Source of the DNA: Ruminococcus sp.
Lineage (GTDB): Bacteria; Bacillota; Clostridia; Oscillospirales; Acutalibacteraceae
Assembly: GCA_045593025.1 (NCBI GenBank)
Contig: JAZNVW010000016.1
Coordinates: 44,537-108,536 of the forward strand
DNA length: 64,000 nucleotides
Direction: 5' to 3'
Shown here: in pieces, positions 7,654 through 57,295 of the stretch
Numbering within the stretch: the stretch's first letter is position 1
Layout of the letters: every line of letters begins with the position of its first letter
The notes under the pieces: generated by a model
Databases searched by the model: none
Told to the model about the DNA's origin: nothing
The model's input: only the letters and a program-made list of their open reading frames with translations
Program-made: the position numbers and the translations under genes

Positions 7654-7676
7654 ACAAATCGAATATTGTTTCTCAC

Positions 7677-28042: not shown

Positions 28043-28083
28043 AAAAAGAGCAGACTGAGAGTACTCAATCAGCTCTTTTTTTA
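28043..28083. terminator. putative terminator after the RyR operon
   Basis: Imperfect hairpin AGAGCAGACTGAG..CTCAATCAGCTCT flanked by A- and T-runs. Confidence 0.5.
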
Positions 28084-28089
28084 TAGCAA

Positions 28090-28374
28090 TCAATCTTCTT
28101 TTGTAATCTTGTATCCCATAGATACAATCAACTTCACGGTTTCCATTGCTGTGTTGCGGTCGTAGTCCTTTTCGCTTTCAGAAAGCTCTGAATATGGCAC
28201 AAGACTCGGTGTGGTCTTTTTTGTATCATCGCGGAATTCTCCGTATGTCCAACCTTCATCGATTCTTCCCTTTGCCCATACCTCATGGACATTCTCTGCA
28301 ATTTTCTCAGACAGCAAGAGCAAATCCTGAGAAAGCACCACAGAACTCGTATCCGCAGGTTTTGGTGTATACAT
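28090..28374 (-). CDS. stand-alone RyR (ryanodine-receptor repeat) domain protein
   Basis: AENVHEVWAKGRIDEGWTYGEFRDDTKKTTPSLVPYSELSESEKDYDRNTAMETVKLI matches the RyR-repeat pattern. The ATG at 28374 is 6 nt after AAGGAGG; the ATG at 28380 abuts the RBS. Confidence 0.75.
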   Translation of the reverse strand: MYTPKPADTSSVVLSQDLLLLSEKIAENVHEVWAKGRIDEGWTYGEFRDDTKKTTPSLVPYSELSESEKDYDRNTAMETVKLIVSMGYKITKED

Positions 28375-28394
28375 ATTCATCCTCCTTCAGTAGT

Positions 28395-30872
28395 TTACTG
28401 AATCTTCAGAGTTTTATTCTCAGCATCCAGTTCATAAGGACTGTCGTATGCTTTATAAATGCAACATTTGCCCGAGGCTCTCTCAATTGCCAGCTTGTGC
28501 AGATATAAAGAGACTGCATCAAGCCTGTCAAAATTCTCTGCTTTTATACGAGCCAAATCAAGATTTGCATCCTTGCTTATTTCTGCCGGCATACCTGCTT
28601 CACACTCAATTTTGGGTGCATACTCATCACACTCTACAAGGCATGGATGAAGTTTCAAAGAAAGTTCCTTTGTCTTGTTTTTACCTGCAAAAGCAAAGGC
28701 ATCAAGCTGTGACTTTGTAGGCAAAGTAAATCCGCCTGTTCGGATAAAGGCGTTCCAGCGTCTGTGTTCAAGCCAGATAAGACGGTAATAAAGGTTTCTT
28801 CGTTCTTCTTGTGAAGGCAGGTTATCAGTCTTTGAAACAAGCTCACTGCAAACCAAACGAAGGTAATTGTTGAACACTTCGGGACTTTCTGATGCATTAT
28901 TGGCACCGTCAAAAACCTTTGACTTGGTTATTGCTCCTGCAGAAAAATATTTATAAGGTATATGCAAACCTCTTGCGATAGATGACCAGTATCCGTACTC
29001 GTCATCCACAAATCTTGTCATTTCCTTTTTGCCGTATACCTTATCTTCAGAGATTCTCTTTATGTATGTCTCGTTAAGCTCCATTGCTGTGCCGTAAGCT
29101 TTGGACATAAACACGTTTTCATAATTATACACATCGGCAAAATTACCGAAAGCATTCATATAAACCTTCTTGTTGTTCTGTTGTAAATTCAAGGTAGTAC
29201 AAACACCCTTGTCAAAAACAACATAGTTTATTACTGCTCTTCTGTTTGTTCTGTCTGTAAGCAAATCTCTGCCGATATACTGTCCGATTTTGTTTGCGAC
29301 AAATATGTTGTTTTCATCAGAACCAATAGCAACCACAAAGTAATCAGAATCGCACAATGCAAATTTATCGCCGTCAAATCTTGCTCTGAGGGCATCATAG
29401 AGGTTGCCTGTCATAACATCTGCCTGCTTATAGCGCAGAGTAAAATAAGGCTTTGCCTGCTCATCGGAATTACAGTAGATGCTTAAAAGTTCCGAAGATG
29501 CTGTTGATGCTTCTGTTTTGAGAATATCTGCATTAATCAGATTAACTCTGTTTCTGAAAGACTCCTCACTCTCCTGAGATACCACATTTATAAACAGGTT
29601 AACGTCAAGCATCTGACCCATCCAGTAAGTTGCAAGAAACATCTGCATACCAATCAGTCCGCTACCGATAACAGTAACGTTCAGAGTTCTGTCCTTTTCG
29701 CCTTCTCTTAAGTTTCTTCCCACCAAGGGCTCATAAAGGGGAACGTCGGAAAGAAGGTTATAAACAAGGTTTTTGTAGCCGTCGATAACTCTGAAAACAG
29801 GAAGCTTTCTGTTGTCTGCACCATATTCATTTTTCAGCTTAGTACTTATTCTGCCAACAAGCTCGTTAGCAGAAGGACTGTTTGAAAACAGGTACACATT
29901 TGAATCCAACAAGCACTCTTCTGCATCACTCTGAGATAACAAAGACATTGTGTGCAGGTTGTTTTCCTGATTCTCGTTCATAATCAGAAAATTAAGTCTT
30001 GTTCCCAACAGTTTGCGCAAGAAGCCTCTTACCTTTATATGGGCAATGTCTTCATCCATACAGAAAGCACCCATAGCCTTTGCTCCTGACAAAAGCTTAA
30101 CCGCCTCTTCGCATTCACAATCAGTATTCACGGAAGCAAAAATAAAAACAGGTTTCTTAATTTTACGTTTAGCTTTTTTGCTTACACTTGCTTTGCTGTC
30201 ATTGTCCTTTGCAAAATCAAAGTACAAATCTTCATCCAGAAGTCTGGATGAAACGATGTTTTTTTCGCCCTTTTCCTTTGCAGATTTGTAATTATTCATA
30301 ATACTCTGTGCAAGGGCAAAGGAGCTTTCGTTAAGCTGTGAAAAAACATAAAACTCATCCCAGAAAGGCAGAAGTCTTAATTTCATTCTGGGGAATATCT
30401 TTGTGAGTATATCAAAGATGATTGCGCCTCCTGCCACAGGTGCCAGCACAGTAACAATAGCCGCGTGAATTCTGTATATCTGTGTAACCCAAGGATATGA
30501 AGAAAAGATGCCCTGCTTCATACTGCGTGCCACAACTACAAACAAATTGTAATCTTCATCAACAGCAAAGGTACGCAAAGTCTGCACCAGACTTCGTACA
30601 ACGGACTCGCCCCAGTGAAGCATCACGGAATTATCTCCGATTGAATCTATAAAACCTGCATCGGAAACACCTGCTATAAGTGTATTATTAATATAAACTC
30701 CTGTTGCAAGTCTCAGAAGAAAAATAGAAACAAACAAGCCTGCAGAGAAAATAAGCAGATTTGTACTCACAGACATCTCTTTATTCTTTGTAAAGAAAAC
30801 TAAGGTCAGCACCGTACAAAATGCAAACACCAGCCAGGACGAAAGAAGCAGAACAAAAATCGTACTTGCCAT
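28395..30872 (-). CDS. polytopic membrane protein with a Rossmann-like (TrkA_N-type) segment and a C-terminal RyR-like module
   Basis: The ATG at 30872 lies 5 nt after GGAGG. The N-terminus has about 5 hydrophobic helices and a K-rich linker. It carries a glycine-rich dinucleotide-fold motif NVTVIGSGLIGMQ. The C-terminus (LIWLEHRRWNAFIRTGGF...LKLHPCLVECDE) echoes the EHxRW...hP.LV core of RyR repeats. Confidence 0.6.
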   Translation of the reverse strand: MASTIFVLLLSSWLVFAFCTVLTLVFFTKNKEMSVSTNLLIFSAGLFVSIFLLRLATGVYINNTLIAGVSDAGFIDSIGDNSVMLHWGESVVRSLVQTLRTFAVDEDYNLFVVVARSMKQGIFSSYPWVTQIYRIHAAIVTVLAPVAGGAIIFDILTKIFPRMKLRLLPFWDEFYVFSQLNESSFALAQSIMNNYKSAKEKGEKNIVSSRLLDEDLYFDFAKDNDSKASVSKKAKRKIKKPVFIFASVNTDCECEEAVKLLSGAKAMGAFCMDEDIAHIKVRGFLRKLLGTRLNFLIMNENQENNLHTMSLLSQSDAEECLLDSNVYLFSNSPSANELVGRISTKLKNEYGADNRKLPVFRVIDGYKNLVYNLLSDVPLYEPLVGRNLREGEKDRTLNVTVIGSGLIGMQMFLATYWMGQMLDVNLFINVVSQESEESFRNRVNLINADILKTEASTASSELLSIYCNSDEQAKPYFTLRYKQADVMTGNLYDALRARFDGDKFALCDSDYFVVAIGSDENNIFVANKIGQYIGRDLLTDRTNRRAVINYVVFDKGVCTTLNLQQNNKKVYMNAFGNFADVYNYENVFMSKAYGTAMELNETYIKRISEDKVYGKKEMTRFVDDEYGYWSSIARGLHIPYKYFSAGAITKSKVFDGANNASESPEVFNNYLRLVCSELVSKTDNLPSQEERRNLYYRLIWLEHRRWNAFIRTGGFTLPTKSQLDAFAFAGKNKTKELSLKLHPCLVECDEYAPKIECEAGMPAEISKDANLDLARIKAENFDRLDAVSLYLHKLAIERASGKCCIYKAYDSPYELDAENKTLKIQ

Positions 30873-30890: not shown

Positions 30891-33800
30891 TTAGTCAACA
30901 GAATCAAAGACCTCTTTAATCTCCGCTCCTGTAAGCTGACTGCGCTCAAGCAAAGCATTAACCAAAGCATCTATCTTTGCTTTGTTTTCAAGCATTATTG
31001 CCATTGTGTTGTCCAGTTCAGTCTTAAGCACGCTGTTGACAGCTTTTCTCACGTCATCTCCAAGCTGTGTCATATCCACTTGGTTTACGTCCATTACCGA
31101 AAGACCGAATTCCTCACTCATACCCCAGGAACATATCATATGCATAGCATAATAAGTGGCTGTTCTCAAATCAGAGGAAGGACCTGTGGAAACTCCGTCC
31201 TCTTCCCCATAATACATAAGCTCAGCACAACGCCCGGCAAGAGAAGTACGGATATTATTGATAACATCTTTTTTGGTATTAACCATTTTATCCTCGTTAT
31301 CATCGTGCATCATATATCCGCCGTGATTGCCGCGGGACACAATGGTAACATAAGAGGGGGTTTCTCCTGAAAGGTAGCACAGCAGGGTGTGTCCTGCCTC
31401 GTGTCTTGCAGTACGCAGTACAGATTCCTCGCTGTACTTTTTACTGTCACCGCTGTTAAATTCCTCAAAAGCCTCATCCAGAACTTCATCGGTAATTTTT
31501 CGCTTACCTTCTCTGAGCGCAGAACGAAGCGAAAGTTCCAGCACAGAGTCAAGATTAGCAAGGCTCTGTCCCATTGAACGCACAGCAATATTCTTTATAG
31601 TTTCCTCACTGATTTCAAAGAGAGGATTCTTTGCAATTTTTGCTCTGAGGTGCTCTTCACGGCTGTCCTTAGAAGGCAAACCAATATAAATCCGTCTGTC
31701 AAAACGTCTCATAAGAGCAGGGTCTAAGCTCTTGGCATTTCCCGAAACAACATCAAAGTTTGTCGCCGCAAGAACAAACACAGGCTTTGAAGAATCTGTT
31801 CTGAAGCCGTCCATCTCTGTGAGGAAAGCAGTCAGAGTTGCTTCACGCTCAGGGTCGGAGTAGCCTGTCCGCTCCTTTGCAATAGCATCTATTTCATCAA
31901 TAAAGATAATGGCAGGAGCGTACTTTCTTGCAAGTGCAAACAGCTCGTGCACCGCCTGTTTGCCTGCACCCATACTGCCCTTTAAGAAGTCATTGCCTTC
32001 CTGAGAAATAAAGGTAACATCAGATTCTCCTGCAGTAGCCTTGGCAAGAAGAGTTTTACCTGTGCCCGGAGGGCCGTACAGAATAATACCCTTGGGTGCT
32101 TTAATTCCTGTACCTGCATACTTTCTGGGATTCTTCATATAATCAATGAAGAACTGCAACTCCTCTTTGGCATCCTCGGCACCGCGTACATCAGAGAATT
32201 TCACATCAGGCTTGGACAGTCTTCCCATAATGCTGTCCCTGTCCTCTGCGTCAACTGCAGTATCCATATACAAATCAAAGAGCCTTATTACAGCTTTCTT
32301 ACCGTCTGCAGATATTGTCTGTCCTGTGGAGAACTTAATCATCTTGTTGGCTCTTGCAAGTTCTTTGAGAGTATACTGATAATGAATCTGGCTCTGCACC
32401 ATATTAAGCTGAGCTCTCAAAGCATCTGCATCATCAATATTTTCAATAATACCCTTACTGCCTTCTTTGTTGAGAGAAACAACCTCCTCTAAACTGAGAG
32501 GGTTTGAAGGAAGTTGCAGAACAAAAACAGGAATGTCTGTCTCCTTGGTAACATATCTAAACAAAGCTCTGCCGTCTGTTTCCATATCCTCAACATTGAG
32601 GTAATCTGTGATTTTCTGAGTAGCACCGAAATAAAAATCACAGATACAGGCACTTATTTTATTCTCCTTTATAATTTTTACTGCTTCTTCATAACCGCAG
32701 GCAGTATGTACAACCAAGTTATCCGACGCAGACTTAATCAAATCGGAAGTTTTGCTGTCTGCATATACAAGAAGCTCTACATCCGATGATGCTTCATACA
32801 TAGCCTCAATCTCAGGTTTGTCATCGGGAACTTCAACCTCAATGCTGATGCTCTCAATGTCCGCAACGCTATGCTGTGAATTTTCTGTTCCGATAAGTCT
32901 TAAAAGTTCAAAGAACTCGTTATCAAAGAAGGCTTTTGAGCGACTGCTGACAGAACGTGCGTCTGCGAGCCCTCCCTCGGAATAAAGTATTGAAGGATAC
33001 AATCTTTCGTCTATAGTTATAGAGTATCCGAACTTTTCTTTCACTTCTTCAACGTGGGTTTCAATATTCCTCTTTGCAAGCTTAATCAAATCACAGGCAC
33101 TCATATGATTAAACATAATAACATTGCCTGTTGCAAAACGGGAACATATAGCCGCAGGGAAGAAAGGCTCCTTGGTGTTGGGGTCAATGTCATTTTTCAA
33201 AGCATTAATAATAACCTTGGGTGAAACGTCTGAGAAAACTGTCTGCTCAGAATTTTCATACAAAGGTCTGCCTGCGTTGGTGGTAAATATAATTATTGCA
33301 TCCTTAAAGGACACATATTTCCTTGTTTTCTGGTCAAGACATCTGCCTGCATCCAGAATCTGCAGAAATTGATGTATAACCTTAAGGTGTGCTTTTTCAA
33401 TCTCATCGAAAAGGATAATACACTTAGGATGCTTATCCACAAATTCTGTCAACTGTCCCTGCTGTGCACCCTTATACACATCATCAGAACCGCAAAGTCC
33501 CACCAGAGAATCCTCATCGGAATAATCACTCATATCAAAACGCTTATAAGCTTCTCTGTCATACCCCAGATGTTCTCTGAGCTGTTCTGCAACAAAGGTT
33601 TTACCTACTCCGGGAGGTCCTGCAAAAAGAAAAGTTGCACGGGGTCTGCGGCGGTCCTTTTCCGTCATATCAGAAATCACAGCCTTAAAAAGCCCCTGTA
33701 TAACAGAATTTACTGCGTGGTCCTGTCCGAAAACACAGGAAAGAAGCTTTTTTCTTACCTTTTTCAGGTTTTCAAGTTCCCTTGCAAGCTGAACTCTGGG

Positions 33801-34379
33801 AGGCTCTGAATCCTTGTGTTCCTGCACAGAAACAGGCTGTGCTCCTTTAGCTTTATCAAAGACAAATACAGCGTCCGAATCAAGCTCGCCATCTTTGTTT
33901 GAACTGACTTCGCCCGAAGAAGACTTGTCATCCTGATGAGTTTCTGATTCAACACAGATTTCTTTACCTGTCACAAAGCATTCAATTAAATCAGTAGGCT
34001 TCTGGAGTATACAATCAATGAGTGTATCTGCTGTAATCAGCTCTTTGCCCTTCTCTGAAGCTGACTTGTTTGCACGAGACACAAGAATCTGATACTGTAT
34101 TGTTGCATCAAAGTCATTGCAAGGTTTATTCGCAACTGCAGTTGCAAGCTGAGAAATCCTCTCTGAAACATTACCCTCAAAAGGCTTAACCAGTGCTTTC
34201 AGAGCTTCAAATTCCTCTTGTAAAAACTTCTCCTTTATACAATCGCCGTTCATCGCATAAAAAGCGTTCAGAATAACAACCGAAAAAATATCCTCAACGG
34301 TTGCAACAGAGCCACCCCTTGCACCGGCAATCTCCTTTGCCTTATCCAATGCATATTCTAAGAAAGGACTAAAATTCAT
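30891..34379 (-). CDS. soluble chimeric AAA+ protease: Clp_N-like N-domain + ClpA/B D2-type AAA + receiver-like insert + FtsH-type AAA + M41 metallopeptidase
   Basis: The ATG at 34379 follows GGGTGG. First Walker A is FLFAGPPGVGKTF with ILFDEIEKAH and FTTNAG (AAA_2 type). Second module is ILYGPPGTGKTLLAKA, IIFIDEIDA, LDPALMRRFDR (FtsH type). A zinc site ARHEAGHTLL (HExxH) follows. No TM helix is seen. Confidence 0.75.
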   Translation of the reverse strand: MNFSPFLEYALDKAKEIAGARGGSVATVEDIFSVVILNAFYAMNGDCIKEKFLQEEFEALKALVKPFEGNVSERISQLATAVANKPCNDFDATIQYQILVSRANKSASEKGKELITADTLIDCILQKPTDLIECFVTGKEICVESETHQDDKSSSGEVSSNKDGELDSDAVFVFDKAKGAQPVSVQEHKDSEPPRVQLARELENLKKVRKKLLSCVFGQDHAVNSVIQGLFKAVISDMTEKDRRRPRATFLFAGPPGVGKTFVAEQLREHLGYDREAYKRFDMSDYSDEDSLVGLCGSDDVYKGAQQGQLTEFVDKHPKCIILFDEIEKAHLKVIHQFLQILDAGRCLDQKTRKYVSFKDAIIIFTTNAGRPLYENSEQTVFSDVSPKVIINALKNDIDPNTKEPFFPAAICSRFATGNVIMFNHMSACDLIKLAKRNIETHVEEVKEKFGYSITIDERLYPSILYSEGGLADARSVSSRSKAFFDNEFFELLRLIGTENSQHSVADIESISIEVEVPDDKPEIEAMYEASSDVELLVYADSKTSDLIKSASDNLVVHTACGYEEAVKIIKENKISACICDFYFGATQKITDYLNVEDMETDGRALFRYVTKETDIPVFVLQLPSNPLSLEEVVSLNKEGSKGIIENIDDADALRAQLNMVQSQIHYQYTLKELARANKMIKFSTGQTISADGKKAVIRLFDLYMDTAVDAEDRDSIMGRLSKPDVKFSDVRGAEDAKEELQFFIDYMKNPRKYAGTGIKAPKGIILYGPPGTGKTLLAKATAGESDVTFISQEGNDFLKGSMGAGKQAVHELFALARKYAPAIIFIDEIDAIAKERTGYSDPEREATLTAFLTEMDGFRTDSSKPVFVLAATNFDVVSGNAKSLDPALMRRFDRRIYIGLPSKDSREEHLRAKIAKNPLFEISEETIKNIAVRSMGQSLANLDSVLELSLRSALREGKRKITDEVLDEAFEEFNSGDSKKYSEESVLRTARHEAGHTLLCYLSGETPSYVTIVSRGNHGGYMMHDDNEDKMVNTKKDVINNIRTSLAGRCAELMYYGEEDGVSTGPSSDLRTATYYAMHMICSWGMSEEFGLSVMDVNQVDMTQLGDDVRKAVNSVLKTELDNTMAIMLENKAKIDALVNALLERSQLTGAEIKEVFDSVD

Positions 34380-34530
34380 ACAAACCACCCTTGTTCTCTA
34401 TACTACCTTAATTGTAAAACCATCTGAAATAACATTATGATATACTTGTTAATATTTTACAAAACATACCCTTTATTGTCAACACAGATTAACAGAACAA
34501 TGTAACTTTCAGGGGTTTTGTGTCAAAACA

Positions 34531-34568
34531 AAAACCACATCGGAATTTGACGTATCCGATGTGGCTTT
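34531..34568 (-). terminator. intrinsic terminator after the MATE gene
   Basis: On the minus strand, stem CCACATCGGA/TCCGATGTGG followed by TTTTT. Confidence 0.7.
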
Positions 34569-34570
34569 TA

Positions 34571-38646: not shown

Positions 38647-40266
38647 TTATGTTAGAAACTGCTCATAGGATGAGTCCATAAGAATTTCTATCTTATAACC
38701 CTTCCCCACTGTAATCTCTTTGAAGAGTCTACAGATTATCATTTTCTTTCTCTCAAGTGATGCTGTGTCAAATTCATCAGCCCAGCTAACGAACTCCTCG
38801 TAGTAGACATCGATGTTTTTCAGTTCAACTTCAGTATTCCTGAGTTTGCTCTGTTTCTCAGATATCTTTCTCGCATTTTCTGTTATCTTGGCTTTTGTAT
38901 TCTCAATTGCCATAGATAACACATCGGGAGTAAACTTGCTGTCACCTATCAAGGCATTTGCGATTTCTTCTGTAAGTTCACCGAGTTTTCTTTTCAGAGT
39001 TTCGGATTCCTTTTCGAGCTTCTTAATCTCCTGCCTTATCTGTGATAACTGAGCTCTGAATTTCTTTTCGATTGCAGCATCCTTGGGAGTAGCTTTGATC
39101 CTCTCGAAACATTTGTGCAGGACTTCAATAACATAGTCATCAACTATCTGAGCTGAATATACAGACTGTCCGTCACATTCATTTCTTTTCATAGCTTTTC
39201 CTGAACATAAGTATCTGTATTTTCTTGTGCTGTTATGTACGACACCATCTTTTGTTCTGTATGTGTCCATACTACTGTTAGCACATAATCGTTGACCGCA
39301 ATGAGCACAGTAAATATTACCACCTATCATTGTTGAGGACTTTGACCTTTGACTCATTTGTGTTCTCTCATCGTTCTTGAGTTTTCTTTGATCAAGTATT
39401 CTCTGAGCCTGTTCAAACAATGAGTCGCTAATGATTTGCAGTTCTACGATTCGTTTGGATTTTACTCCGCCCCTTACATAGAAGCCACAGTATAGAGGAT
39501 TCTGTAAGATTCGCTTAATAGTATTTGACTGGAATTTAGAACCGTTATGTGTCCGTATTCCCATACTATTAATATACTCTGCCATAACATAAGAACCCAA
39601 GCCCTCTTTTACGGTCTTTTCGAATATCATTCTGACAATCTCCGCCTCATCGGGGTCGACCTCCAGTGTCATAAGTTCCTTTCCTTTTTTATTTACGACA
39701 CCGCTTTTTACAAGTCGATATCCGAAAGGAGCACATCCGCCTGTATAGAATCCATCTTCAACTAACTGATGGAGGCGAGTCTTTACACGCATTGATGTCT
39801 TTTGACTTTCACCGTTGGCCTGCCAGAATCTTATGTAGTTCATGAGCTTGTCAACATGGCTGTCCATTCTCTGTTCGCCTTCGTTGACACTCCATACTTC
39901 TATACCGTGCTGAATGAACCATTCAACAACGAACGGGGTTTCATTGTCGATTCGTCCTATTCTGTCAAACATAAACACGAGAAGTATATCGAACTCTTTG
40001 TTTTCCGCTGCAGTTTTCAATTCCTGAACAGCATCTCGGTCATTGGCTGATACTTTATATCCCGAAATGCCTTGTTCTTGGTATTCTTTCTTAATCACCC
40101 ATCCGGGGTGTTGAGCTGCAAATTCTCTGCAAGCCTGCCTCTGCATTGGAATGTCATTCTTATCAACCTGTCCTTTGGTTGATACTCTATAAAGACAGTT
40201 GACGATTTTTGTTTCTACAAGTGGCGGCACAAATGCCGGAAATACTGTCGGTACGGTTGAGCCCAT
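38647..40266 (-). CDS. large serine recombinase (resolvase/invertase catalytic domain + recombinase/Zn-ribbon + coiled-coil)
   Basis: 539 aa with the catalytic motif LYRVSTKGQ, then FDRIGR, the Cys cluster CAHCGQRL...C and a C-terminal coiled coil. RBS GAGGT lies upstream. Confidence 0.9.
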   Translation of the reverse strand: MGSTVPTVFPAFVPPLVETKIVNCLYRVSTKGQVDKNDIPMQRQACREFAAQHPGWVIKKEYQEQGISGYKVSANDRDAVQELKTAAENKEFDILLVFMFDRIGRIDNETPFVVEWFIQHGIEVWSVNEGEQRMDSHVDKLMNYIRFWQANGESQKTSMRVKTRLHQLVEDGFYTGGCAPFGYRLVKSGVVNKKGKELMTLEVDPDEAEIVRMIFEKTVKEGLGSYVMAEYINSMGIRTHNGSKFQSNTIKRILQNPLYCGFYVRGGVKSKRIVELQIISDSLFEQAQRILDQRKLKNDERTQMSQRSKSSTMIGGNIYCAHCGQRLCANSSMDTYRTKDGVVHNSTRKYRYLCSGKAMKRNECDGQSVYSAQIVDDYVIEVLHKCFERIKATPKDAAIEKKFRAQLSQIRQEIKKLEKESETLKRKLGELTEEIANALIGDSKFTPDVLSMAIENTKAKITENARKISEKQSKLRNTEVELKNIDVYYEEFVSWADEFDTASLERKKMIICRLFKEITVGKGYKIEILMDSSYEQFLT

Positions 40267-40564: not shown

Positions 40565-42835
40565 TTAAGTAAAATAATCTTCCGTTTTCACTGATTTCAT
40601 AAATTCAGAAACTTCTTCAATGTTTCTTATTACAGGATATTTTTCCATTGCTTTGAACACTTTGCCTGTATATGACAAGGCTCTTGCCCTTGGGTCAAGT
40701 ATAGATACAACTCCTGTATCCGTTTCACTTCTGATGAGTCTGCCTACACCCTGCCTGAGTTTAATCAGCATATTCGGGGTACAATATCTGTTTATATACT
40801 CTTTCACATAAGCACAGCGATCCTTCTTTTCTTCCATCAGAACGTTTCTTATAGGGAAAGGCAACCTGACGATTATAACAGATGAAAGTCTATCACCGAC
40901 ACAATCTACACCTTCCCACATTGAACCTGAAGCAAACAAAATACCATTGTCTGACTTTTTAAAGTCTGAAATAACATTGTTAGTACCTCTTGTCATTTTG
41001 AACAGCTTATATTTCGAGAGCTTGTCCGCAAGCTTTCCGTATACTGTTTCCAACATTCTGTATGAAGTGAAAAGTATTGCCGTGTGTCCGTTAGTAGCTT
41101 TTATTATCTTTTCGATCTCTGTTGAGATTCTTTTGATATACTGCTCATTCTTGTTATCGGGAAACGGCAGTCCATGCGGAGCATATAATCGTGCATTCTC
41201 CCTGTAATTAAATGGAGACTCTGTTTTGGATTCTAAAATCAATCGGCTTTCAATATCTGCCAGACCCTTTTCTTCTTTGAAGAACTCAAAGTCTGTACCG
41301 TCTGACATCGTTCCGCTTGTCAGCACATAGCTTACATTTCTATCCCAAACGCTGTCTTTAAGTTGTTTGGTAATATCTCTTGGCACACTGCAAATGTACA
41401 TTTCGTTATTCTCGTCTGTATTTATCCAGACGATATTTGAAATATCATCTTTAAGGGCTGTCAGTTTTGTAATCAAACTCTTTCCTGTTATGGGCAAATA
41501 ATAATTTGCTCTGACTTTCAGATCTTCAATGCTGACAATTGTGTTTGCCATCTTATCAATAAGCGATGCGAGTGTTTTTCCAACATTGATAACAGTATAA
41601 CTATCCTCATCGGCATCAGAAAGTCTGCGAGAGCTTTTTATATATCTGAACAATTCATTATGGGTTTTATGTGCCATAGCAATTAAGTATTTATACTCTT
41701 GTATTCTTTTCTTATCCGAACACAACGTATGTACCGCATTGAGATATTCGGGAATATCACTTTCACAAAGAACTTCGCCAAATGTTGTTTCAGCCGCTTC
41801 TATCAGTTTATGTGCTTCATCTACCACAACAAAGTAACTATCTTTGATAACTCCTTTTTTACCCGGTACTCTGTTCTTCTGTGATGCAAGATACATATTG
41901 TGGTTTGTCACCTGAAAATCAATGCCAACTTCTTCTGTAGCATCTGATATATATTGTACATATCTGCAGAGTGAACGCTTTGCGCAACCTGAGCACGAAC
42001 CTTTTACGCAAATCCTGCTTTTGACGGCATTAGAAATTGTAATTTTATCAAGGTCAATATTGCTGTCGTTTTTAATCTTGGTTTCCAATGCAAAGATTTT
42101 TCTGCTGTTATTATCGGGATACTTGAGAATATTGGTAAGATAATCTTTATATCTATAAGAACACAGAAAATGTTCCTTACCTTTTCTAAGTACCGCCTTT
42201 AATGGCTTTGGAATTATCCTAAAACTCATCAGCATTGCCGACAGCTTCGGAATCTCCTGTTCCACTAAAGCTTTCTGCAATTCAATGCTCGATGTGGTAA
42301 TTGTAACAGGCATATCCTGTCCGTATTTTCTTTTATATACAAGTCTTGCTACAAGACTCGCAACCATATATGCAAGAGTTTTACCTGTACCGACCTCCGC
42401 TTCGCAGATGGCAACCTGTTTTTCTGTAAGACCTTTATACATTGTTTTTGCAAGGTCTATCTGAGCTTTTCTGATGTTGTAGCCGTAGCTTGGCATAACT
42501 ACATTGAAAATGGTATCTACCATTCCGATGGGATTATCAACCATCTCCTGAACAGTATCAACCTGACGGTTATCTTTTACTGTTTCCAATATATATGGTA
42601 TAAGTTGAGTGGCAGTTTCTTCTGTAAACTGTTCGCACGGCTTAACTGTTGTCACTACCTCAGAATCACCTGTAGCTTTATCGATAGCTATATATCTGAT
42701 CTGATTTCTGAGTGCAATATGATAAATGATAAATCTATCTTCAAAGGTAAAGTCGTACTCTCCCCCATAATAGGCTTTATCGCAATTAACGTAACTTTCA
42801 AATAACTCATGATCACTATATGTAAATTCAAACAC
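40565..42835 (-). CDS. DinG/XPD (Rad3)-family Fe-S DNA helicase
   Basis: Walker A is CEAEVGTGKTLAYM and the DEAH box is VVDEAHKL. A four-Cys cluster ICVKGSCSGCAKRSLC lies between them. C-terminal motifs are ILFASGSMWEGVD and QGVGRLIRSETD. The GTG at 42835 has an AAGGAGAA RBS 6 nt upstream; the listed extension to 43018 looks non-coding. Confidence 0.8.
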   Translation of the reverse strand: MFEFTYSDHELFESYVNCDKAYYGGEYDFTFEDRFIIYHIALRNQIRYIAIDKATGDSEVVTTVKPCEQFTEETATQLIPYILETVKDNRQVDTVQEMVDNPIGMVDTIFNVVMPSYGYNIRKAQIDLAKTMYKGLTEKQVAICEAEVGTGKTLAYMVASLVARLVYKRKYGQDMPVTITTSSIELQKALVEQEIPKLSAMLMSFRIIPKPLKAVLRKGKEHFLCSYRYKDYLTNILKYPDNNSRKIFALETKIKNDSNIDLDKITISNAVKSRICVKGSCSGCAKRSLCRYVQYISDATEEVGIDFQVTNHNMYLASQKNRVPGKKGVIKDSYFVVVDEAHKLIEAAETTFGEVLCESDIPEYLNAVHTLCSDKKRIQEYKYLIAMAHKTHNELFRYIKSSRRLSDADEDSYTVINVGKTLASLIDKMANTIVSIEDLKVRANYYLPITGKSLITKLTALKDDISNIVWINTDENNEMYICSVPRDITKQLKDSVWDRNVSYVLTSGTMSDGTDFEFFKEEKGLADIESRLILESKTESPFNYRENARLYAPHGLPFPDNKNEQYIKRISTEIEKIIKATNGHTAILFTSYRMLETVYGKLADKLSKYKLFKMTRGTNNVISDFKKSDNGILFASGSMWEGVDCVGDRLSSVIIVRLPFPIRNVLMEEKKDRCAYVKEYINRYCTPNMLIKLRQGVGRLIRSETDTGVVSILDPRARALSYTGKVFKAMEKYPVIRNIEEVSEFMKSVKTEDYFT

Positions 42836-43256
42836 TTTTGATTCTCCTTTTCTTCGATATATGAGCAACAGAATGGTATGCAGGAACCAGATCGGCTCCT
42901 GCACAGTAGTTCTATTGCTCATTAAATAAATTAGAGCATTCGAAAAGATGTAGAGTATCTCGCAGCATTTGTTATACCTTAAGGAATAACCGAGCTTCAT
43001 ATATAATGCAACAGGCATCCGCTCTCAGCCTGAACCACTATATCCCGTATCGCAAGGGCTGTGCCAACAGAAGTATCATTATTACCCACCGAGGTCATGG
43101 CTAATTGAGAGTCTGCTGTTTATCTCTCAACTCGGCACATAGTTTATCGCTCTCTCTTTCGAGGTCTTGGCGCCTATGCCCGACAGCTTTCCTTTCGGCT
43201 CTGTGGGTATTACCCTCTACATCCGTTTATTCAATTTTCAAAGTGCAAAGAAGGAT
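42836..43256 (-). ncRNA. candidate structured non-coding RNA or cis-element (class unknown)
   Basis: 421-nt gap between co-directional genes with nested helices. On the plus strand: CCGAG..TTGAGAG-12 nt-CTCTCAA-CTCGG (43090-43134). On the minus strand: GGCACAGCC..GGCTG..TGCC (43016-43067) and two GAAA-loop mini-hairpins (CCGAAAGG, CTCGAAAGAG). No convincing ORF. Confidence 0.3.
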
Positions 43257-45267: not shown

Positions 45268-46791
45268 TTACTTAATCTTTGCTCCACACGCGAAACAATA
45301 TCCAGAGTTTCTTTTTACAACAGCTCCGCATAAAGGACAAGACTTCATCGATTCTATCGAAGTCCGATCTATCGGTTTCTTCTTATCCTCTGAAGTCGCC
45401 TTAATTACAATTGGTGCTTCTTGATGCTTGTGTGGTATATCTTGTTTTATCTTTACAGTTTTATAACATACACTACAATAACGCTGAGACTTCTGCATAA
45501 TTGCACCACAATATTCGCAGCATACCGTAACATTATTTTGACTACTCGTTGTTTTTATATCAACAACCACTTTATCCTCTACATCTGTTGAGTTATGAGA
45601 AACTTCATCAGTAACCATTGAAGTTTCTGTTTCTATGCTTGTTGAATCTATGTCATCAAGCATAACAACTGTAGTATCTTCTACTTCGGACTCTTCTATT
45701 AACACTGTTTCTTCGTTCTGCTCTGTTTCCTCTAGAAACAAAGTAGCATCCGAGTTATCGTCAGGATGAAGAGCAATCTCATCAGAATCATCGCAATTAA
45801 TTACTATATTTGATATTCTTTCTTTGTCGTTCCCATCTAAAACATCTTTAAGAACACCCACAAGCTCATGAACATTTTGATATCTGTCCTTATATGATAT
45901 AGATAAACCTTTCATGAGAACATTCTCTTGATCAATCGTTATATCAGCATTAAACTTAGATGGTTTTTCTAAGCAATCATCAAAAACTCTCTCCATTGCA
46001 TCGTCTGGTGTTACACCTGTTATACACCTATATATTGTCGCACAGAGAGCATAAATGTCAGTCCAAGGTCCTTGTATCCCCTTTGAACGATACTGTTCTT
46101 CCGGAGCGTAACCTGGTTTTAACATTATTGAAAGACTTCTTCTATCTTCAAAATTAACATCTCTAGCAGCACCGAAATCCATCAGCTTTAATGTACCATC
46201 TTTTAGCAACATAATATTATCTGGACTAATATCTCTATGTATTAACCCTCTATTATGCACCTTTCCAAGAGACTCTAATAATGGCAACATCTTACTGATA
46301 ATATCAGTATAATCAAACACTGAATTCTCTTTAAGATACTCTTTAAGTGTTATTCCATCCACAAACTCCATAACAATATATGCAGTATTATTAGCCTCAA
46401 AGTAATCTCGAACATCAACTATATTTTTATCACCAGAGAATTTCGCAAGCACTCTTGCCTCACTTAAGAATTTACTCTTTCCATTCATAAAATACTCTGA
46501 GTGCTTTGTTCCTGATATCGTTATATCAGAGGTTATTTCCCCATATCTATTCGCATAACCGCTCGGATAGAATTCTTTAACAGCTATTCGCATATCAAGA
46601 TTTAAATCTCTACCAATATATGTAATACCAAAGCCACCTTCACCAAGTGCTTTACCTACCAAATATCTATTATTTAGAATTGTTCCAGGCTTTAGGTGGT
46701 GAGGAGAAGTACTTTCTAAACCTAACTTTTTACAATTCTCGCATACATCTTCATTACACTTGTGCATACAATTGTAGCAATAATTGTCCAT
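45268..46791 (-). CDS. cytoplasmic Hanks-type Ser/Thr kinase flanked by zinc ribbons
   Basis: N-terminal CYNCMHKC..CENC. Kinase motifs are GEGGFGITY, AVKEF, HRDISPDNIML, DFGAA and GYAPEEQ. An acidic linker follows, then two C-terminal CxxC...CxxC ribbons. No TM helix. Confidence 0.9.
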   Translation of the reverse strand: MDNYCYNCMHKCNEDVCENCKKLGLESTSPHHLKPGTILNNRYLVGKALGEGGFGITYIGRDLNLDMRIAVKEFYPSGYANRYGEITSDITISGTKHSEYFMNGKSKFLSEARVLAKFSGDKNIVDVRDYFEANNTAYIVMEFVDGITLKEYLKENSVFDYTDIISKMLPLLESLGKVHNRGLIHRDISPDNIMLLKDGTLKLMDFGAARDVNFEDRRSLSIMLKPGYAPEEQYRSKGIQGPWTDIYALCATIYRCITGVTPDDAMERVFDDCLEKPSKFNADITIDQENVLMKGLSISYKDRYQNVHELVGVLKDVLDGNDKERISNIVINCDDSDEIALHPDDNSDATLFLEETEQNEETVLIEESEVEDTTVVMLDDIDSTSIETETSMVTDEVSHNSTDVEDKVVVDIKTTSSQNNVTVCCEYCGAIMQKSQRYCSVCYKTVKIKQDIPHKHQEAPIVIKATSEDKKKPIDRTSIESMKSCPLCGAVVKRNSGYCFACGAKIK

Positions 46792-52780: not shown

Positions 52781-55700
52781 TCAAGAATCGGGTTGTTCTT
52801 TTGCTTTTACCAACTTAAGTTTAACAACATTATTATCATGAATATAGTAAGCATCTCCAACCTCAAGGCGTTTTCGATTATTTCGTATATCTTCATACGG
52901 AACATCAAAGGGTTTCAGATTATCAAGATCCTCAAAGAACAAAAGATGTTGTTCCTGCTTAACAGTTCTTATAGGTTCCGGAGCATCATATGACACAGAA
53001 GAATTAGAATAATTCGAGAAGATAATAGCGACATTCATACCTTTAAAACGAGATACAATATCATTAAACATGTCTAGAATGCTATAATCTTCACTAATCT
53101 TTTTGGCTACATCATTGTTTTGAATTATCATCAAAAGCAATTCAGAATTACCATTAATGCTTCCATTCTCGATCAAAGTGTTATATCGTTCTGTTAAAAC
53201 GGAATGCCATTCCTGTATAATATCAGTAACCTTATCAACACCTAAAGAATATGTAGTTACTAACTTACTTTCTTTAAAGCACTCAAGTTTTCTAGTAACA
53301 TCATCAAACAATACAACTTTCGCAGGATTGGTTTCAATATTGGATTCCAGAACATCGAATAAATACGCTAAGAAGTTTTTATGACCAGTGTTCGCTTTAC
53401 CGCACAGTCCTATGATTCCTAACTGAGAAATGTCTAAATAATAAGGCTCAACATCTTGATAGGTTAAACCAACAGGAACTTTGTATCCTTCCGATTGTGC
53501 ATCGAACTCATATTTTATCGCATCCATTGTTAAAACTGTCGGAATATAAGGAATTTGTTTAGCTTTTATGCCAATATATTTATCATTAATATTAATAACA
53601 AACTCTTGCATTTGCTGAACTCGTGCATACTCTTTTTCACCTTCAAAAGCTAAGTAGGTTTGACACTCAAGGATTCTTTTATCGACCTCTAATATGCAAC
53701 GTCCAGGCACCTCATCGGGTTTTAATGTTACATGATCAAATAACGCAGAGTATTCTGATGTATCATTACAACACAAGGCCATCTTGTTAGCAAAGTTAGA
53801 TAAATATCTATATCCGATACCAGTTGTCTGAGAGTTTGTAACAATAGTAGATATACCCACCGATAATCCTTCTCTTAAAATATTCAACAAGCTGTCATCA
53901 TCTGCAAGATACAACTCGATAAGAGCTGTTAGATTATCAATCATTAAATATATATGAGGTAGGTCACTATATCCAGCTTCAACATACGAAGAATATGAAC
54001 TAACGCCTACAGAAACGAGTCTTTCTTTTCTCGTTAATATTTCCGAAAATAAAAGCTTAAACATATTCTTTAGCTTTTCATCATCAGAAGAGCACACAAC
54101 CCCACCAACATGATTTAAATTCTCAAAGTTTTTCAATACCATTGAACCAAAATCTAGAATATAAATGGTAGATTCTTTGGGAGACGATGTTGAGGCAATC
54201 GTTCTTATTAAACTTTGTAAAATATTAGTTTTACCATTTTGTGCTGATCCTAAAACAAATGTATTTTTATTATCAAAATCCATTGATGCTACTCCCTGAA
54301 TTTGGTTGTCCGGATCATCGTAAATACCCAGGCCTATCAAGCTATTTTTCTTCATATTGGCTTTTGAATATTCAATATGTTTTGGTAGTGATGGCAAACA
54401 AATATTAGGCAACCTACTTATACCTTTTACTCCACAATAGTTATGTACATACTCGACGATTGATTCTAACTGTGTAAAAACAGAACCAGATGTCTTTTTC
54501 TTCTTTTGAACATAAATCGGGGTTCGTTTTCCAGCCGCACTCACCTCAAATAATGCAAATTCTTTAATTTCGGCTTCTGCCATTTTTTCAGGAGCACCAC
54601 TATACGCAGACTGAAACAATTCGAACACCTCGTTGTTTCCCACCTGTAAATAAGCGCGACCAGGTTCCTTTATTTCCGCCGCCAATGGAGATTTAATAAC
54701 CTCATTACTATCCTCTTGGCTTTGAACTTTTAAACACAGTTTAAATTTAGAGTTACTCCAGATCTGTTCATCGACCTGACCAGATGGCTTCTGTGTTGCT
54801 AATATTAAGTGAACACCTAAACTTCGACCAATTCGTGCTGCTGATATCAACTCTTTCATAAACTCTGGTTGTTCAGCTTTAAGTTCAGCAAACTCATCTA
54901 CAATAAGTACTAAATGAGGGATTGGAACCGATACTTTTCCTGCTTTATACTTTTGTATATATTTATCTATATGGTTTACCTCAGCCTCAGCAAATAGCCT
55001 TTGTCTCTTCTGCAACTCAGCTTTTATAGATTTAAGAGAACGATCAATCTCTTTTCCATCAATATTTGTAATTGCGCCAAGCATATGTGGCAAATCCTTA
55101 AACTGATTGGCCATTCCACCGCCCTTAAAGTCAATAATCACAAATGCTACTTCGTAAGGATGGAATATGGTTGCAATTGACAATATGTAGGTTTGTAAAA
55201 TCTCGGACTTACCCGATCCAGTGGTACCTGCAACCAAACCATGAGGGCCATGTGCTTTATCATGCAAATCCAAAGAGATAATTCCTGTTTTTGTAACACC
55301 TATTGGTGCCGCCATAGACTGAAAAACTTTAGAATTTGCCCATCTTTGATCAAGGTTCAAATCGTCAACCATTAATATTCCAAACATTTCAAAAAGTGAA
55401 ATGTTTTTTGTAAGAGCACCCTCTAACGATATTTCCTCTGTAAATATTGGTGCTAATAAGTTTACGATTTTTTTTGCATCTTCATCGCTTATTCCATTAT
55501 AAGTAAAATCAACTGTATCGTCCTGATTATTAGAATTGACTAATCTGCCCTTATTATAAGAATCAACAAAAATCAACTGTGAGCATCCTTGCGGAATTTT
55601 GCTTTTTTCTTCCGCCATAAATACAAACGTCGCTGCAAGGTCTTTTAGTTTGTTTACATAGTTGGATAACGGATGTGTTTGAAAGCCACATTCATCATAG

Positions 55701-57295
55701 AAGAATACTATAATATGAGGCGCTTTATCAGCTTGCGAATTTTGTGAACGTTGTGTTAGTTCATTATACAAATAATCGAACGTACGACTCTTACTTTCAT
55801 CGTCAACAGCGATATTTCTATATGATGTTGCTTCGTTATATACATGAGGTAAAAATCTTAACCAACTAATCTTAGGAGCATTTTCTTTTGCAGCTACAAA
55901 GAACAATTGTACATCAGTATAATACTGGCGAGCACAAATATCGATTATTAGGTTCTTCATGATAGAAAAACGACAATCCATATTTCCAATTATACCAATT
56001 GCGTTACTTTCTCGAAACTCACAAACAACGGGTGCATTTTCTAATGCTGAAAATTCCTGAGACACCTGTTGTGGTATTAACTGTAAATCATCTTCAACTT
56101 CTAAGCATTCTTGTTTTTTGTATTCAACATCTCTAGATGGCGTAACGCTACCTAATCCCAATCGCACTTGCAGGAAATCATCATCAAATATTCGTCTATC
56201 AAACAAATCACTAGAATAATCTATGAATCTCGTATACTCCGTTGATATATCTAAATACATCTGTTCTAAAGCTTGTCTTTCTTCATCTCTATATTTAGAT
56301 ATATCCGAACGCTTTCTTTCTATATATTTATTGTATTTTTCTATTCTCTCTTCGTTTTGTTTTTTAAACTCAACCTTATTTTGAATCGCGGTCATAACAG
56401 CTGTTACAATTGCCATTCCTCCAGAAATAAGGCTAAACACCACCATAGTACCGCCCATAGAAGCCATCAAGCCAGACGCCACTAACATACCTAGTGATGG
56501 TAAAAGACTCATCAACAAATTAGATTTTGCTTTTTGCGGTTTTGGAGGCGGATCAAGAACCTCGATTTTATCCGTATTTAAGACTGTCCTAATTCTAGTA
56601 TTACGACTAAATTTCGGATAGTTATTAGGGTTCGGATAATCAGTATAGGATAGTCCGTTTACAAATAAGTCTCCTCTAATTTCTGTCCACAAAATGTCAT
56701 TCTTATAGTAAAAATTAAAATCAGATATTGAGAAAAAATCCCCGTTCTTCACTACGCATCCGCTTATAGCTCTTGAACCATTATAGTAAACACCATATGT
56801 CGCTTTCCTGATTTGCAAATCAAAGCCTTTTGAGGATTTTTGTAATTCTATAACATCATCTTTAACAAAAGCACTCTTAAGCTTCACCTGACAATAATCA
56901 TCTGTTCCTATTCTAATCGAAGAACAACCAACAAGACTAATCGCTCTTTCATACTTAATTTTGCTATTGTTAAAATCAATTAGAAATTCTATTGTGAAAG
57001 CATCTATATTCGATTCTACGTATCTAATCGTAAATAAATCCCCATGCTTTGGAGAAAGTGCCATAAGCTTTCTACTATCTCCTACTGAAAAATAAAAGCT
57101 ATCAGAACACAACAAAGTCCACTCATTATTCTTCTTAATAAAATTAAGTTCAATTGGTTCAAAGAACAAATCTCTGTGTAATCTAAAATCACAACCTACA
57201 CTTGTACCTAATTTCGCTTCATTTTTACCAATAGGCAACTCAAATTCTTTATATAAATTTTTGTTTGATATTATTATTTTATATCTGTACTCCAT
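52781..57295 (-). CDS. essC: type VII secretion FtsK/SpoIIIE-family ATPase EssC
   Basis: 1504 aa with N-terminal FHA-like repeats and two TM helices (LLMSLLPSLGMLVASGLMA.., VVFSLISGGMAIVTAVMTAI). Three P-loop domains are present: GTTGSGKSE with IVDEFAEL, GSAQNGKTN, and the degenerate GKANTGHKN. Confidence 0.95.
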   Translation of the reverse strand: MEYRYKIIISNKNLYKEFELPIGKNEAKLGTSVGCDFRLHRDLFFEPIELNFIKKNNEWTLLCSDSFYFSVGDSRKLMALSPKHGDLFTIRYVESNIDAFTIEFLIDFNNSKIKYERAISLVGCSSIRIGTDDYCQVKLKSAFVKDDVIELQKSSKGFDLQIRKATYGVYYNGSRAISGCVVKNGDFFSISDFNFYYKNDILWTEIRGDLFVNGLSYTDYPNPNNYPKFSRNTRIRTVLNTDKIEVLDPPPKPQKAKSNLLMSLLPSLGMLVASGLMASMGGTMVVFSLISGGMAIVTAVMTAIQNKVEFKKQNEERIEKYNKYIERKRSDISKYRDEERQALEQMYLDISTEYTRFIDYSSDLFDRRIFDDDFLQVRLGLGSVTPSRDVEYKKQECLEVEDDLQLIPQQVSQEFSALENAPVVCEFRESNAIGIIGNMDCRFSIMKNLIIDICARQYYTDVQLFFVAAKENAPKISWLRFLPHVYNEATSYRNIAVDDESKSRTFDYLYNELTQRSQNSQADKAPHIIVFFYDECGFQTHPLSNYVNKLKDLAATFVFMAEEKSKIPQGCSQLIFVDSYNKGRLVNSNNQDDTVDFTYNGISDEDAKKIVNLLAPIFTEEISLEGALTKNISLFEMFGILMVDDLNLDQRWANSKVFQSMAAPIGVTKTGIISLDLHDKAHGPHGLVAGTTGSGKSEILQTYILSIATIFHPYEVAFVIIDFKGGGMANQFKDLPHMLGAITNIDGKEIDRSLKSIKAELQKRQRLFAEAEVNHIDKYIQKYKAGKVSVPIPHLVLIVDEFAELKAEQPEFMKELISAARIGRSLGVHLILATQKPSGQVDEQIWSNSKFKLCLKVQSQEDSNEVIKSPLAAEIKEPGRAYLQVGNNEVFELFQSAYSGAPEKMAEAEIKEFALFEVSAAGKRTPIYVQKKKKTSGSVFTQLESIVEYVHNYCGVKGISRLPNICLPSLPKHIEYSKANMKKNSLIGLGIYDDPDNQIQGVASMDFDNKNTFVLGSAQNGKTNILQSLIRTIASTSSPKESTIYILDFGSMVLKNFENLNHVGGVVCSSDDEKLKNMFKLLFSEILTRKERLVSVGVSSYSSYVEAGYSDLPHIYLMIDNLTALIELYLADDDSLLNILREGLSVGISTIVTNSQTTGIGYRYLSNFANKMALCCNDTSEYSALFDHVTLKPDEVPGRCILEVDKRILECQTYLAFEGEKEYARVQQMQEFVININDKYIGIKAKQIPYIPTVLTMDAIKYEFDAQSEGYKVPVGLTYQDVEPYYLDISQLGIIGLCGKANTGHKNFLAYLFDVLESNIETNPAKVVLFDDVTRKLECFKESKLVTTYSLGVDKVTDIIQEWHSVLTERYNTLIENGSINGNSELLLMIIQNNDVAKKISEDYSILDMFNDIVSRFKGMNVAIIFSNYSNSSVSYDAPEPIRTVKQEQHLLFFEDLDNLKPFDVPYEDIRNNRKRLEVGDAYYIHDNNVVKLKLVKAKEQPDS

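Follow-up and report, generated by a model that had tools for sequence, protein, structure and literature searches.

In a 64,000-nucleotide stretch of Ruminococcus sp. DNA (contig JAZNVW010000016.1, positions 44,537 to 108,536 of the forward strand; hereafter the window), a minus-strand gene encodes a soluble protein that, judged from its sequence, is predicted to be a catalytically complete AAA+ zinc metalloprotease. In this single chain, a motor of the type of the second nucleotide-binding domain (NBD2) of the Clp/Hsp100 ATPases (D1) precedes an FtsH-type motor (D2) that leads into an M41 peptidase domain, and a receiver-fold domain is inserted between the two motors. The protease represents an undescribed family of gut Clostridia and is the first gene of a three-gene operon, where it is followed by a protein with three hydrophobic helices (the partner) and by a small RyR-domain protein. 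On balance, and with a probability of roughly 55% for the overall explanation including a double-ring mechanism, the protease most likely provides the proteolysis in a nucleotide-sensor-linked module of the conflict or defence type. The gene and its parts are located in the window as follows (pLDDT, predicted local distance difference test).

30891..34379, minus strand: whole gene, encoding a soluble protein of 1162 residues with two AAA+ modules and an M41 peptidase; the stop codon occupies 30891-30893
33969..34379, minus strand: N-terminal all-alpha head, residues 1-137, with seven helices in the model (pLDDT ~85)
33810..33947, minus strand: acidic, Ser-rich linker, residues 145-190, predicted to be disordered (pLDDT <50), poorly conserved and variable in length in the alignment
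32880..33800, minus strand: D1, Clp/Hsp100 NBD2-type AAA+ module, residues 194-500; its best PDB matches are the NBD2 of ClpE, Hsp104, ClpC and ClpB
32430..32780, minus strand: receiver-fold (probable pseudo-receiver) domain, residues 534-650, with a (beta-alpha)5 fold and an invariant D581
32259..32429, minus strand: long helix (651-676) and long beta-hairpin (679-707) leading into D2, as seen in the model
31440..32216, minus strand: D2, FtsH-type classical AAA+ module, residues 722-980, assigned by Pfam, NCBIfam, Foldseek and the alignment to FtsH
31959..31988, minus strand: degenerate pore-1 loop of D2, FLKGSMGAGK, residues 798-807, placed by alignment to T. thermophilus FtsH
30894..31433, minus strand: M41 zinc peptidase domain, residues 983-1162, with HEAGH at 993-997, E1053 and the third zinc ligand D1070

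The identity of the two motors and of the peptidase is carried by profile matches and by the conservation of catalytic residues. Pfam places AAA_2 at residues 245-406 (E=1.8e-37), AAA (PF00004) at 765-901 (1.9e-46) and Peptidase_M41 at 983-1157 (5e-29), and about 230 residues lie between the two AAA+ modules. Among the NCBIfam models, residues 199-449 align to the second nucleotide-binding domain of ClpA, ClpB and ClpV (profile positions ~440-680 of ClpA and 549-749 of ClpB), and residues 722-1154 align to the FtsH model TIGR01241 with 346 bits, which is below its equivalog cutoff of 600 bits. In D1, the Walker A motif GPPGVGKT (254-261) and the LFDEIEKAH stretch (323-331, with Walker B residues D325 and E326) are accompanied by sensor-1 N368 and sensor-2 R475; alignment with the NBD2 of ClpE, Hsp104 and ClpC (down to 7e-37, for ClpE) places Y302 on the pore-loop Tyr and R414 on the Arg finger. 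In D2, Walker A (GPPGTGKT, 769-776), FIDEIDA (826-832, with Walker B residues D828 and E829), MDGF (856-859) and N874 are followed by the second region of homology, RRFDR (891-895), which supplies the Arg fingers R891 and R892. The C-terminal 450 residues of the model match FtsH structures with a template modelling score (TM-score), normalised to the target, of up to 0.79 (Foldseek), and in the alignment to T. thermophilus FtsH (1.6e-76) HEAGH, E1053 and D1070 all fall on zinc-site positions of FtsH. In an alignment of 35 homologues, residues 254-261, Y302, D325, E326, N368, R414 and R475 of D1, residues 769-776, D828, E829, 856-859, N874, R891 and R892 of D2, and H993, E994, H997, E1053 and D1070 of the peptidase are invariant. 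Relatives at ~33% identity (L004 from Acetatifactor and L003 from Ruminococcus) retain the same catalytic motifs. Domain E-values and homologue conservation of this kind are far beyond chance. A preliminary description of the gene, made from the letters alone, had named the AAA_2-type module, the FtsH-type module and a HEAGH zinc site after it; all three hold, the third zinc ligand that it left to be checked is D1070, and the pseudo-enzyme that it considered finds no footing in the invariant Walker B, arginine-finger and zinc-ligand positions.

The reading frame is equally clear. The minus-strand open reading frame is unbroken across 30891..34388, where a GTG start would give 1165 residues; the ATG at 34379 gives 1162 residues and has a Shine-Dalgarno-like AAGGGTGG 6-7 nt upstream, which confirms the gene limits proposed earlier. 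The GTG at 34388 would equal the N-terminal length of the homologues, but the ATG has the better Shine-Dalgarno spacing and is preferred; the difference of three residues is immaterial. Since the highest mean hydropathy in a 19-residue Kyte-Doolittle scan is 1.54, in a stretch that includes charged residues, and no stretch reaches 1.6, no transmembrane (TM) helix is predicted anywhere in the protease, as had been supposed.

A word-indexed search returned more than 120 full-length relatives of 1114-1188 residues, which are 45-71% identical to the query across 80-100% of its length and show the same Pfam domains. They derive from independent NCBI, ENA, JGI and Logan assemblies, and a fusion of two genes by misassembly, which had been raised as a caveat, is refuted by these proteins together with the continuous frame. 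Where the relatives are named at all, they are called just "AAA family ATPase" and come from metagenome-assembled genomes of Clostridia, Oscillospiraceae, Ruminococcaceae or Eubacterium; by these names, the family is patchy and restricted to Clostridia. When a profile of the middle region, which is specific to the family and comprises the receiver, the helix and the hairpin, was run against 1.84 billion representative proteins (50%-identity clusters), 341 clusters matched at E<=1e-3, of which 249 reached E<=1e-10 and 81 reached E<=1e-30; in most of them the region is located at approximately residues 450-740 of proteins of 1100-1240 residues. Longer members (1500-2126 residues) also exist, and in four of the six examined an N-terminal Ser/Thr kinase is fused to the AAA_2-receiver-AAA-M41 core (L003 3068-8896, which also has WD40 repeats, P0258, P0235 and P0225; 1600-2126 residues); P0266 has, instead of the kinase, a C-terminal domain of the RNase H1 N-terminal type. 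One locus (L090 1-6939) encodes two protease paralogues of 1150 and 1184 residues in tandem, with one small gene between them, and both precede the partner and RyR genes. Among phage and plasmid records, none spans 80% or more of the D1 (AAA_2) and receiver region, so there is no evidence of phage or plasmid carriage. A scan of genome contigs with the patterns FDEIEKAH and LFAGPPGVG listed mostly generic AAA_2 proteins from many phyla; four distant full-length relatives of the protease (L003-L006) were among the matches listed, and the relatives at 45-71% identity were not. Also among them, stand-alone AAA_2 modules with both patterns (L007-L082) cover just the first 170-310 residues of the query, and their hosts belong to many phyla, including Verrucomicrobiota, Acidobacteriota, Bacteroidales and candidate phyla radiation bacteria.

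Comparison with known systems shows familiar parts in an arrangement that is undescribed in the literature searched. Over their whole length, the last 440 residues of the protease align with the cytosolic region of FtsH (T. thermophilus 2DHR, A. aeolicus 4WW0 and T. maritima 2CE7; 32-37% identity, phmmer E=1.6e-76), and the likeness extends over Walker A and B, MDGF, the second region of homology with its two arginines, HEXXH and the subsequent Glu and Asp. On the other hand, the protease has neither the TM helices nor the periplasmic domain of FtsH, begins with a soluble helical domain, and carries ~720 extra N-terminal residues that include a second ATPase; its second region of homology reads RRFDR in place of RPGRFDR, and the subclade of the window has Ser for the pore-loop Phe. 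With the class I Hsp100/Clp proteins (ClpB, ClpC, ClpE, ClpA and Hsp104), D1 shares the pore-loop Tyr, the DE(I/V)EKAH Walker B motif, sensor-1, the Arg finger and a GAR-like sensor-2 motif, ADAR, and the head of the protease has a possible, weak resemblance to Clp_N. Unlike them, the protease has no NBD1 and no middle (coiled-coil) domain, and it lacks the IGF/IGL loop for ClpP docking, no [IL]G[FLM] tripeptide being present in D1; its peptidase is fused rather than being a separate ClpP. In Hsp100 proteins the classical-clade-type ring comes first and NBD2 second; the order in the protease is the reverse, with the NBD2-type ring first and the classical-clade ring second. To our knowledge, the well-studied AAA+ proteases have either one ring fused to a peptidase (FtsH and Lon) or a one- or two-ring Clp ATPase docked on a separate ClpP. 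The present family departs from both plans, since a Clp NBD2-type motor stands before an FtsH-type motor-peptidase in one soluble chain, with a receiver-fold domain, the likely switch, inserted between the motors, and one subclade has lost the substrate-gripping residue of the FtsH-type ring. The family is thus a natural experiment in the division of labour between stacked AAA+ rings and in the activation of such machines. No description of a Clp-NBD2/receiver/FtsH-M41 fusion, nor of a protease tied to RyR or CARF proteins, was found in the literature, our coverage of which is incomplete.

The pore loops of the two rings behave differently. The pore-loop Tyr of D1 (Y302) is kept in 35 of 35 sequences. 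In D2, 26 of the 28 wider-family members have a pore-1 loop of the form K-[YF]-x-G, and in the window protein Ser802 (G-S-M-G) occupies the position of Phe in the MFVG of FtsH. The aromatic residue is missing in all seven members of the window subclade (the window protein and P0002-P0007), where the loop reads GSMG, GGMG, GGAA or GGAG or has a four-residue deletion. The pore-loop Phe is essential for proteolysis by E. coli FtsH. Because D2 lacks this aromatic in the window subclade, D1 is the likelier puller of substrate there, and the pattern suggests that D1 is the translocating ring and that D2 is retained for assembly and/or ATP-dependent gating. Of the pore-loop aromatics that the preliminary description wished to see confirmed, that of the Clp-type ring is therefore kept, and that of the FtsH-type ring is missing in this subclade. 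The loss shows no relation to the presence of partner genes; loci that bear the aromatic (L085, L086 and L090) have partners as well.

An AlphaFold model of the full-length protease has a mean pLDDT of 76 and a predicted TM-score (pTM) of 0.46, so only the individual domains are trustworthy. The head has no Pfam match, including Clp_N, in a search to E<=10. With the profile of the head family, the top PDB match is the ClpA N-domain (E=0.0065, in the correct repeat register), followed by the weaker N-domains of ClpC2 and ClpB (E=0.2-0.8); the Clp_N-like head proposed at the outset is consequently plausible, with weak support from the ClpA match but none from Pfam.

For the insert between the motors, Pfam likewise offers no meaningful match up to E<=10. 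Residues 500-728 were modelled on their own, which gave a pLDDT of 82.8 and a pTM of 0.74. The top ~40 Foldseek matches of this model in the PDB are almost all receiver domains (E from 1.6e-5, target TM-score up to 0.82), led by NtrX, LuxO, PmrA, MtrA, KdpE, NtrC1 and CheY. At the level of sequence, the receiver signal is marginal (PDB profile search, E ~0.07-0.8), and D581 aligns with the phospho-acceptor Asp. This Asp is the only one of the five receiver signature residues that is conserved among the 35 sequences: the acidic pair after beta1 varies, with Ser in 16 sequences, Asp in 13 and another residue in 6 at position 541; position 622, where receivers have Thr/Ser after beta4, carries Gln or Glu in 33; and there is no Lys after beta5. 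The CheY-like segment noticed earlier is therefore upheld as a fold but not in its signature residues, and because just the central Asp is kept, the domain is probably a pseudo-receiver or an atypically regulated receiver. The closer family has conserved features of its own in this domain, namely the motif L-N-[IV]-E-D-x-[ED]-S-x-x-R (594-604), located in a beta3-alpha3 loop that is enlarged, and the residues P617, E631/E632, S635 and G640. The NtrC-type regulators (NtrX, 5M7N; NtrC1, 1NY5/4L4U; LuxO) provide the best fold matches and share the order of a receiver and then a long helix directly N-terminal to an AAA+ module. In NtrC1, the receiver domain controls ring assembly. They differ from the protease in that its receiver keeps one signature residue of five, no histidine kinase gene occurs in the window operon or in the eight loci compared below, the downstream AAA+ module is a protease motor and not a sigma-54 activator, and the sequence similarity is marginal (E ~0.07). 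The helix and hairpin at 651-707 have no sequence or fold match in the PDB (profile search and Foldseek); an OB-fold or PAN-like collar, considered because an NCBIfam PAN match starts at 660, was unsupported by the same searches and was rejected.

It is worth noting that most of the functional information is carried by the two operon partners, which the preliminary description overlooked. The remaining features of the operon are as follows.

34454..34482, minus strand: promoter-like site TTGACA-17-TAAAAT, with 11 of 12 matches, ~75 nt upstream of the ATG
28395..30872, minus strand: partner, 825 residues, with three hydrophobic helices in its N-terminal part, a Rossmann region that bears GxGxxG, and an RyR-like repeat at its C-terminus
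28090..28380, minus strand: single-repeat RyR-domain protein of 96 residues (PF02026, 3.7e-36, 123.7 bits against a cutoff of 27.4)
28053..28070, minus strand: terminator-like hairpin directly after the RyR gene, at the end of the three-gene operon

That these genes form one operon follows from the short gaps (6-18 nt, depending on the start codon of the partner, and 14 nt), the promoter-like site of the protease's own, and the terminal hairpin; the promoter-like site is located after the hairpin and T-run that terminate the MatE gene. In the partner, the GxGxxG motif is followed by a GSDENNI stretch, and soluble paralogues of the partner give weak TrkA_N matches (E=0.006-0.04). The partner has no meaningful Pfam match (E<=10) and no recognisable channel or transporter domain, and RyR repeats are its sole PDB profile matches (E=0.006-1), which concern the C-terminal segment EHRRWN...KLHPCLV. 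The six small RyR proteins (93-101 residues; from the window, L001, L002, L085, L086 and L090) conserve the motifs HE.W and E-Y-D-R. Where the proteases of two loci share only ~45% identity, the small RyR proteins still share 63-70%. The small protein may pair with the one RyR-like repeat in which the membrane partner ends.

RyR-domain (PF02026) proteins bind or cleave the immune signals 2'/3' cyclic ADP-ribose (cADPR) via H..W, H and D residues, and the ligand residues H75, W78, H100 and D117 are conserved across the RyR family, including the animal RyR repeats (preprint PMC13232231). The H..W motif is retained in both operon partners, and so are the "HP" His in the membrane partner and the Asp in the small RyR protein. 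The 96-residue protein is thus like the phage protein RyDEP (PMC13232231) in being a clear PF02026 member with the H..W and Asp positions, and unlike it in having Thr for the phosphate-binding His; RyDEP itself is a phage anti-Thoeris enzyme or sponge.

The comparison of gene context covers eight independent protease loci (the window, L001, L002, L083, L085, L086, L088 and L090). The partner and the small RyR protein follow the protease in six of them, and a protein of ~410 residues, 37-44% identical between loci, is encoded just upstream of the protease in five; every locus has the partner/RyR pair, this upstream gene, or both. The ~410-residue protein matches the PADLOC model CARF4--CARF_PDDEXK over its full length (1.7e-31) as well as Pfam Card1_endonuc, and in this it resembles the Card1/Can2 class of CARF-PD-(D/E)xK effectors; the known members, by contrast, are ancillary nucleases of type III CRISPR systems. 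We know of no link of either RyDEP or Card1/Can2 to an AAA+ protease. In L001, which is 71% identical and syntenic with the window, the Card1-like gene (6722-7966) stands between MatE and the protease, and in its place the window has just a 190-bp intergenic region (34380-34570). Other recurrent neighbours are a TIR-Ser/Thr kinase that matches defence kinases, an FHA protein, a TIR-STAND protein, TerB, TerD, a zincin-like protein, and a soluble partner paralogue with weak TrkA_N and RyR matches. The RyR gene is followed by a ~365-residue zincin-like protein and a 153-residue TerB-like protein in three loci (L085 13625-15185, L086 13168-14843 and L002 17125-18274), and in L002 a TIR-STAND protein carries the zincin-like region as a C-terminal fusion. 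Downstream genes in L090 encode TPR, PspA-like and WXG100-like proteins. The distant relative L004 (297-6050) lies near a SpoVK-like AAA protein, a small RelA_SpoT alarmone synthetase and YbjN.

Based on the results presented above, the flanking of the relatives by partner/RyR proteins and/or the Card1-like nuclease is what leads us to place the protease in a module linked to nucleotide sensors. By analogy with FtsH and the Clp ATPases, the protease would form hexamers. The head and D1, through the invariant Tyr302, would engage and translocate a protein substrate; D2, which keeps its ATP-binding, hydrolysis and arginine-finger residues, would hold the hexamer together and gate the entry to the M41 chamber, in which the translocated chain would be cut. 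The receiver-fold domain, directly in front of D2, is the likely on/off switch by analogy with the NtrC-type activators, and it would work via a ligand, a partner protein or an unusual modification and not by classical His-Asp phosphotransfer. Once the module is triggered, the protease may destroy a target, of the invader or of the host, or it may act on its own partners to control these effectors; the sequence is compatible with both directions of control. A two-module FtsH-type ATPase has a precedent in the vWA-MoxR ternary systems, which are predicted bacterial conflict systems (Kaur, Burroughs, Iyer and Aravind 2020, PMC7159879). There, however, both modules are of the FtsH type and the first is inactive, whereas the first module of the protease is a Clp NBD2 type that is predicted to be active; the partners are MoxR and vWA proteins instead of RyR or CARF proteins; and the hosts are deltaproteobacteria, actinobacteria and planctomycetes instead of Clostridia.

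Several observations weigh against the proposed conflict module. The comparison covers only eight loci, and in two of these the protease occurs without the RyR pair. Homologues of the partner without the protease are found in two further loci, next to a SpoVK-like AAA protein (AAA and AAA_lid_6) and YbjN or next to an EssC-like FtsK/SpoIIIE protein, a Gln_amidase toxin domain and TIR_2 (L089 7001-12026; L091 681-15427). In the window, the operon is set among ordinary genes (MatE, an SNF transporter and a pyrophosphatase); no Card1-like gene occurs in the operon or anywhere in the 64 kb, and none of the operon genes encodes an enzyme that would produce a signal (TIR, cyclase or Cas10). For the partner, the assignments as RyR-like and TrkA_N-like are weak (E=0.006 or worse), and with Thr at the RyDEP phosphate-binding His position in six of six small RyR proteins, the ligand set is incomplete. 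The stacking of the rings, which the preliminary description had named, and the division of labour between D1 and D2 are steps that we infer. Finally, the three operon proteins match no defence model of PADLOC-DB 2.0 beyond generic AAA similarity: the partner and the small RyR protein have no match, and the protease matches the IetA, PDC-M37B, DolB and TRIP13 models through one AAA module each. Membership in IetAS, Dodola or PDC-M37 was rejected on this account, as the matches span a single AAA module.

In a more far-reaching form, which we put forward tentatively and regard as doubtful, the protease would form the common core of a new immune or conflict system, made up of several genes, in gut Clostridia; it would execute or reset a response to adenine-nucleotide signals and be switched via its pseudo-receiver. 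The dedicated sensor-effectors that read these signals may then be the RyR/Rossmann membrane protein with the small RyR subunit, and/or the CARF-PD-(D/E)xK nuclease. If true, no AAA+ FtsH-type protease would have been tied to nucleotide immune signalling before, and bacterial RyR domains would gain their first role in cells as opposed to phages. The gene context in any case raises the interest of the protease above that of the fusion alone: the RyR/CARF partnership points to an unexplored link of regulated proteolysis with nucleotide signalling in abundant gut anaerobes, and the operon offers a handle on the cellular role of bacterial RyR domains.

A housekeeping function is the first alternative, and an unlikely one. 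Here the protease would serve cytosolic quality control as a general disaggregase-protease, a ClpB/ClpC-like unfoldase with an FtsH-like chamber that clears misfolded or aggregated proteins, and its neighbours would be incidental. The intact catalytic motifs are in line with this, as are the resemblance of the Clp_N-like head and the NBD2-type ring to disaggregases and the position of the window operon among ordinary metabolic and transport genes in synteny with L001. However, a family that is small and patchy (the 341 clusters among 1.84 billion representatives) and limited to some Clostridia, that is duplicated in tandem in one locus and fused to Ser/Thr kinases in some members, and that recurs beside CARF-nuclease, RyR, TIR and TerB genes in otherwise unrelated surroundings shows a pattern that is unusual for core proteostasis genes. 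The built-in receiver-fold domain, moreover, argues for a triggered activity.

Next in order, and improbable as well, is an FtsH anchored in trans. FtsH is a protease of membrane proteins, and RCK/TrkA_N domains gate ion transport; the partner with its three TM helices could recruit the soluble protease to the membrane, in place of the TM anchor that FtsH itself has, or be its regulated substrate, with the RyR proteins tuning membrane transport or channel function by an adenine nucleotide (NAD(H), ADP-ribose or ATP), in a role that is physiological and not one of conflict. The partner gene does start 6-18 nt past the protease stop (by start codon) and follows the protease in six of eight loci, and its three TM helices, GxGxxG Rossmann region and RyR-like end, together with the weak TrkA_N signal of its soluble paralogues, would suit such a role. 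Yet two of the eight loci lack the TM partner and have the soluble CARF nuclease alone beside the protease, homologues of the partner exist without the protease, the recurring neighbours are defence-type proteins, and no channel or transporter domain is recognisable in the partner. An artefact or a dead enzyme, that is, a two-gene assembly chimera or a pseudo-enzyme without catalysis, is hardly credible, because its sole pointer is the lost D2 pore-loop aromatic of the window subclade, which leads towards a partial loss of function, and against it stand more than 120 full-length homologues from independent NCBI, ENA, JGI and Logan assemblies, a continuous reading frame, and Walker A/B, arginine fingers, sensors, HEAGH, E1053 and D1070 that are invariant, with the motifs kept down to ~33% identity.

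Elsewhere in the window, at 38647-63996, a separate group of genes was noticed, along which the G+C content falls from ~0.42 to ~0.33 past 44 kb. It includes a large serine recombinase (38647-40266), a DinG-like helicase (40565-43018), a Ser/Thr kinase with a double zinc ribbon (45268-46791), a 1504-residue EssC-like FtsK/SpoIIIE ATPase (52781-57295), a ParA/MinD-like ATPase (57573-58631), two proteins without a Pfam match, and a Pkinase-PASTA-Big_3 giant that runs past the end of the window. These genes may belong to a type VII-like secretion locus or form a mobile island.

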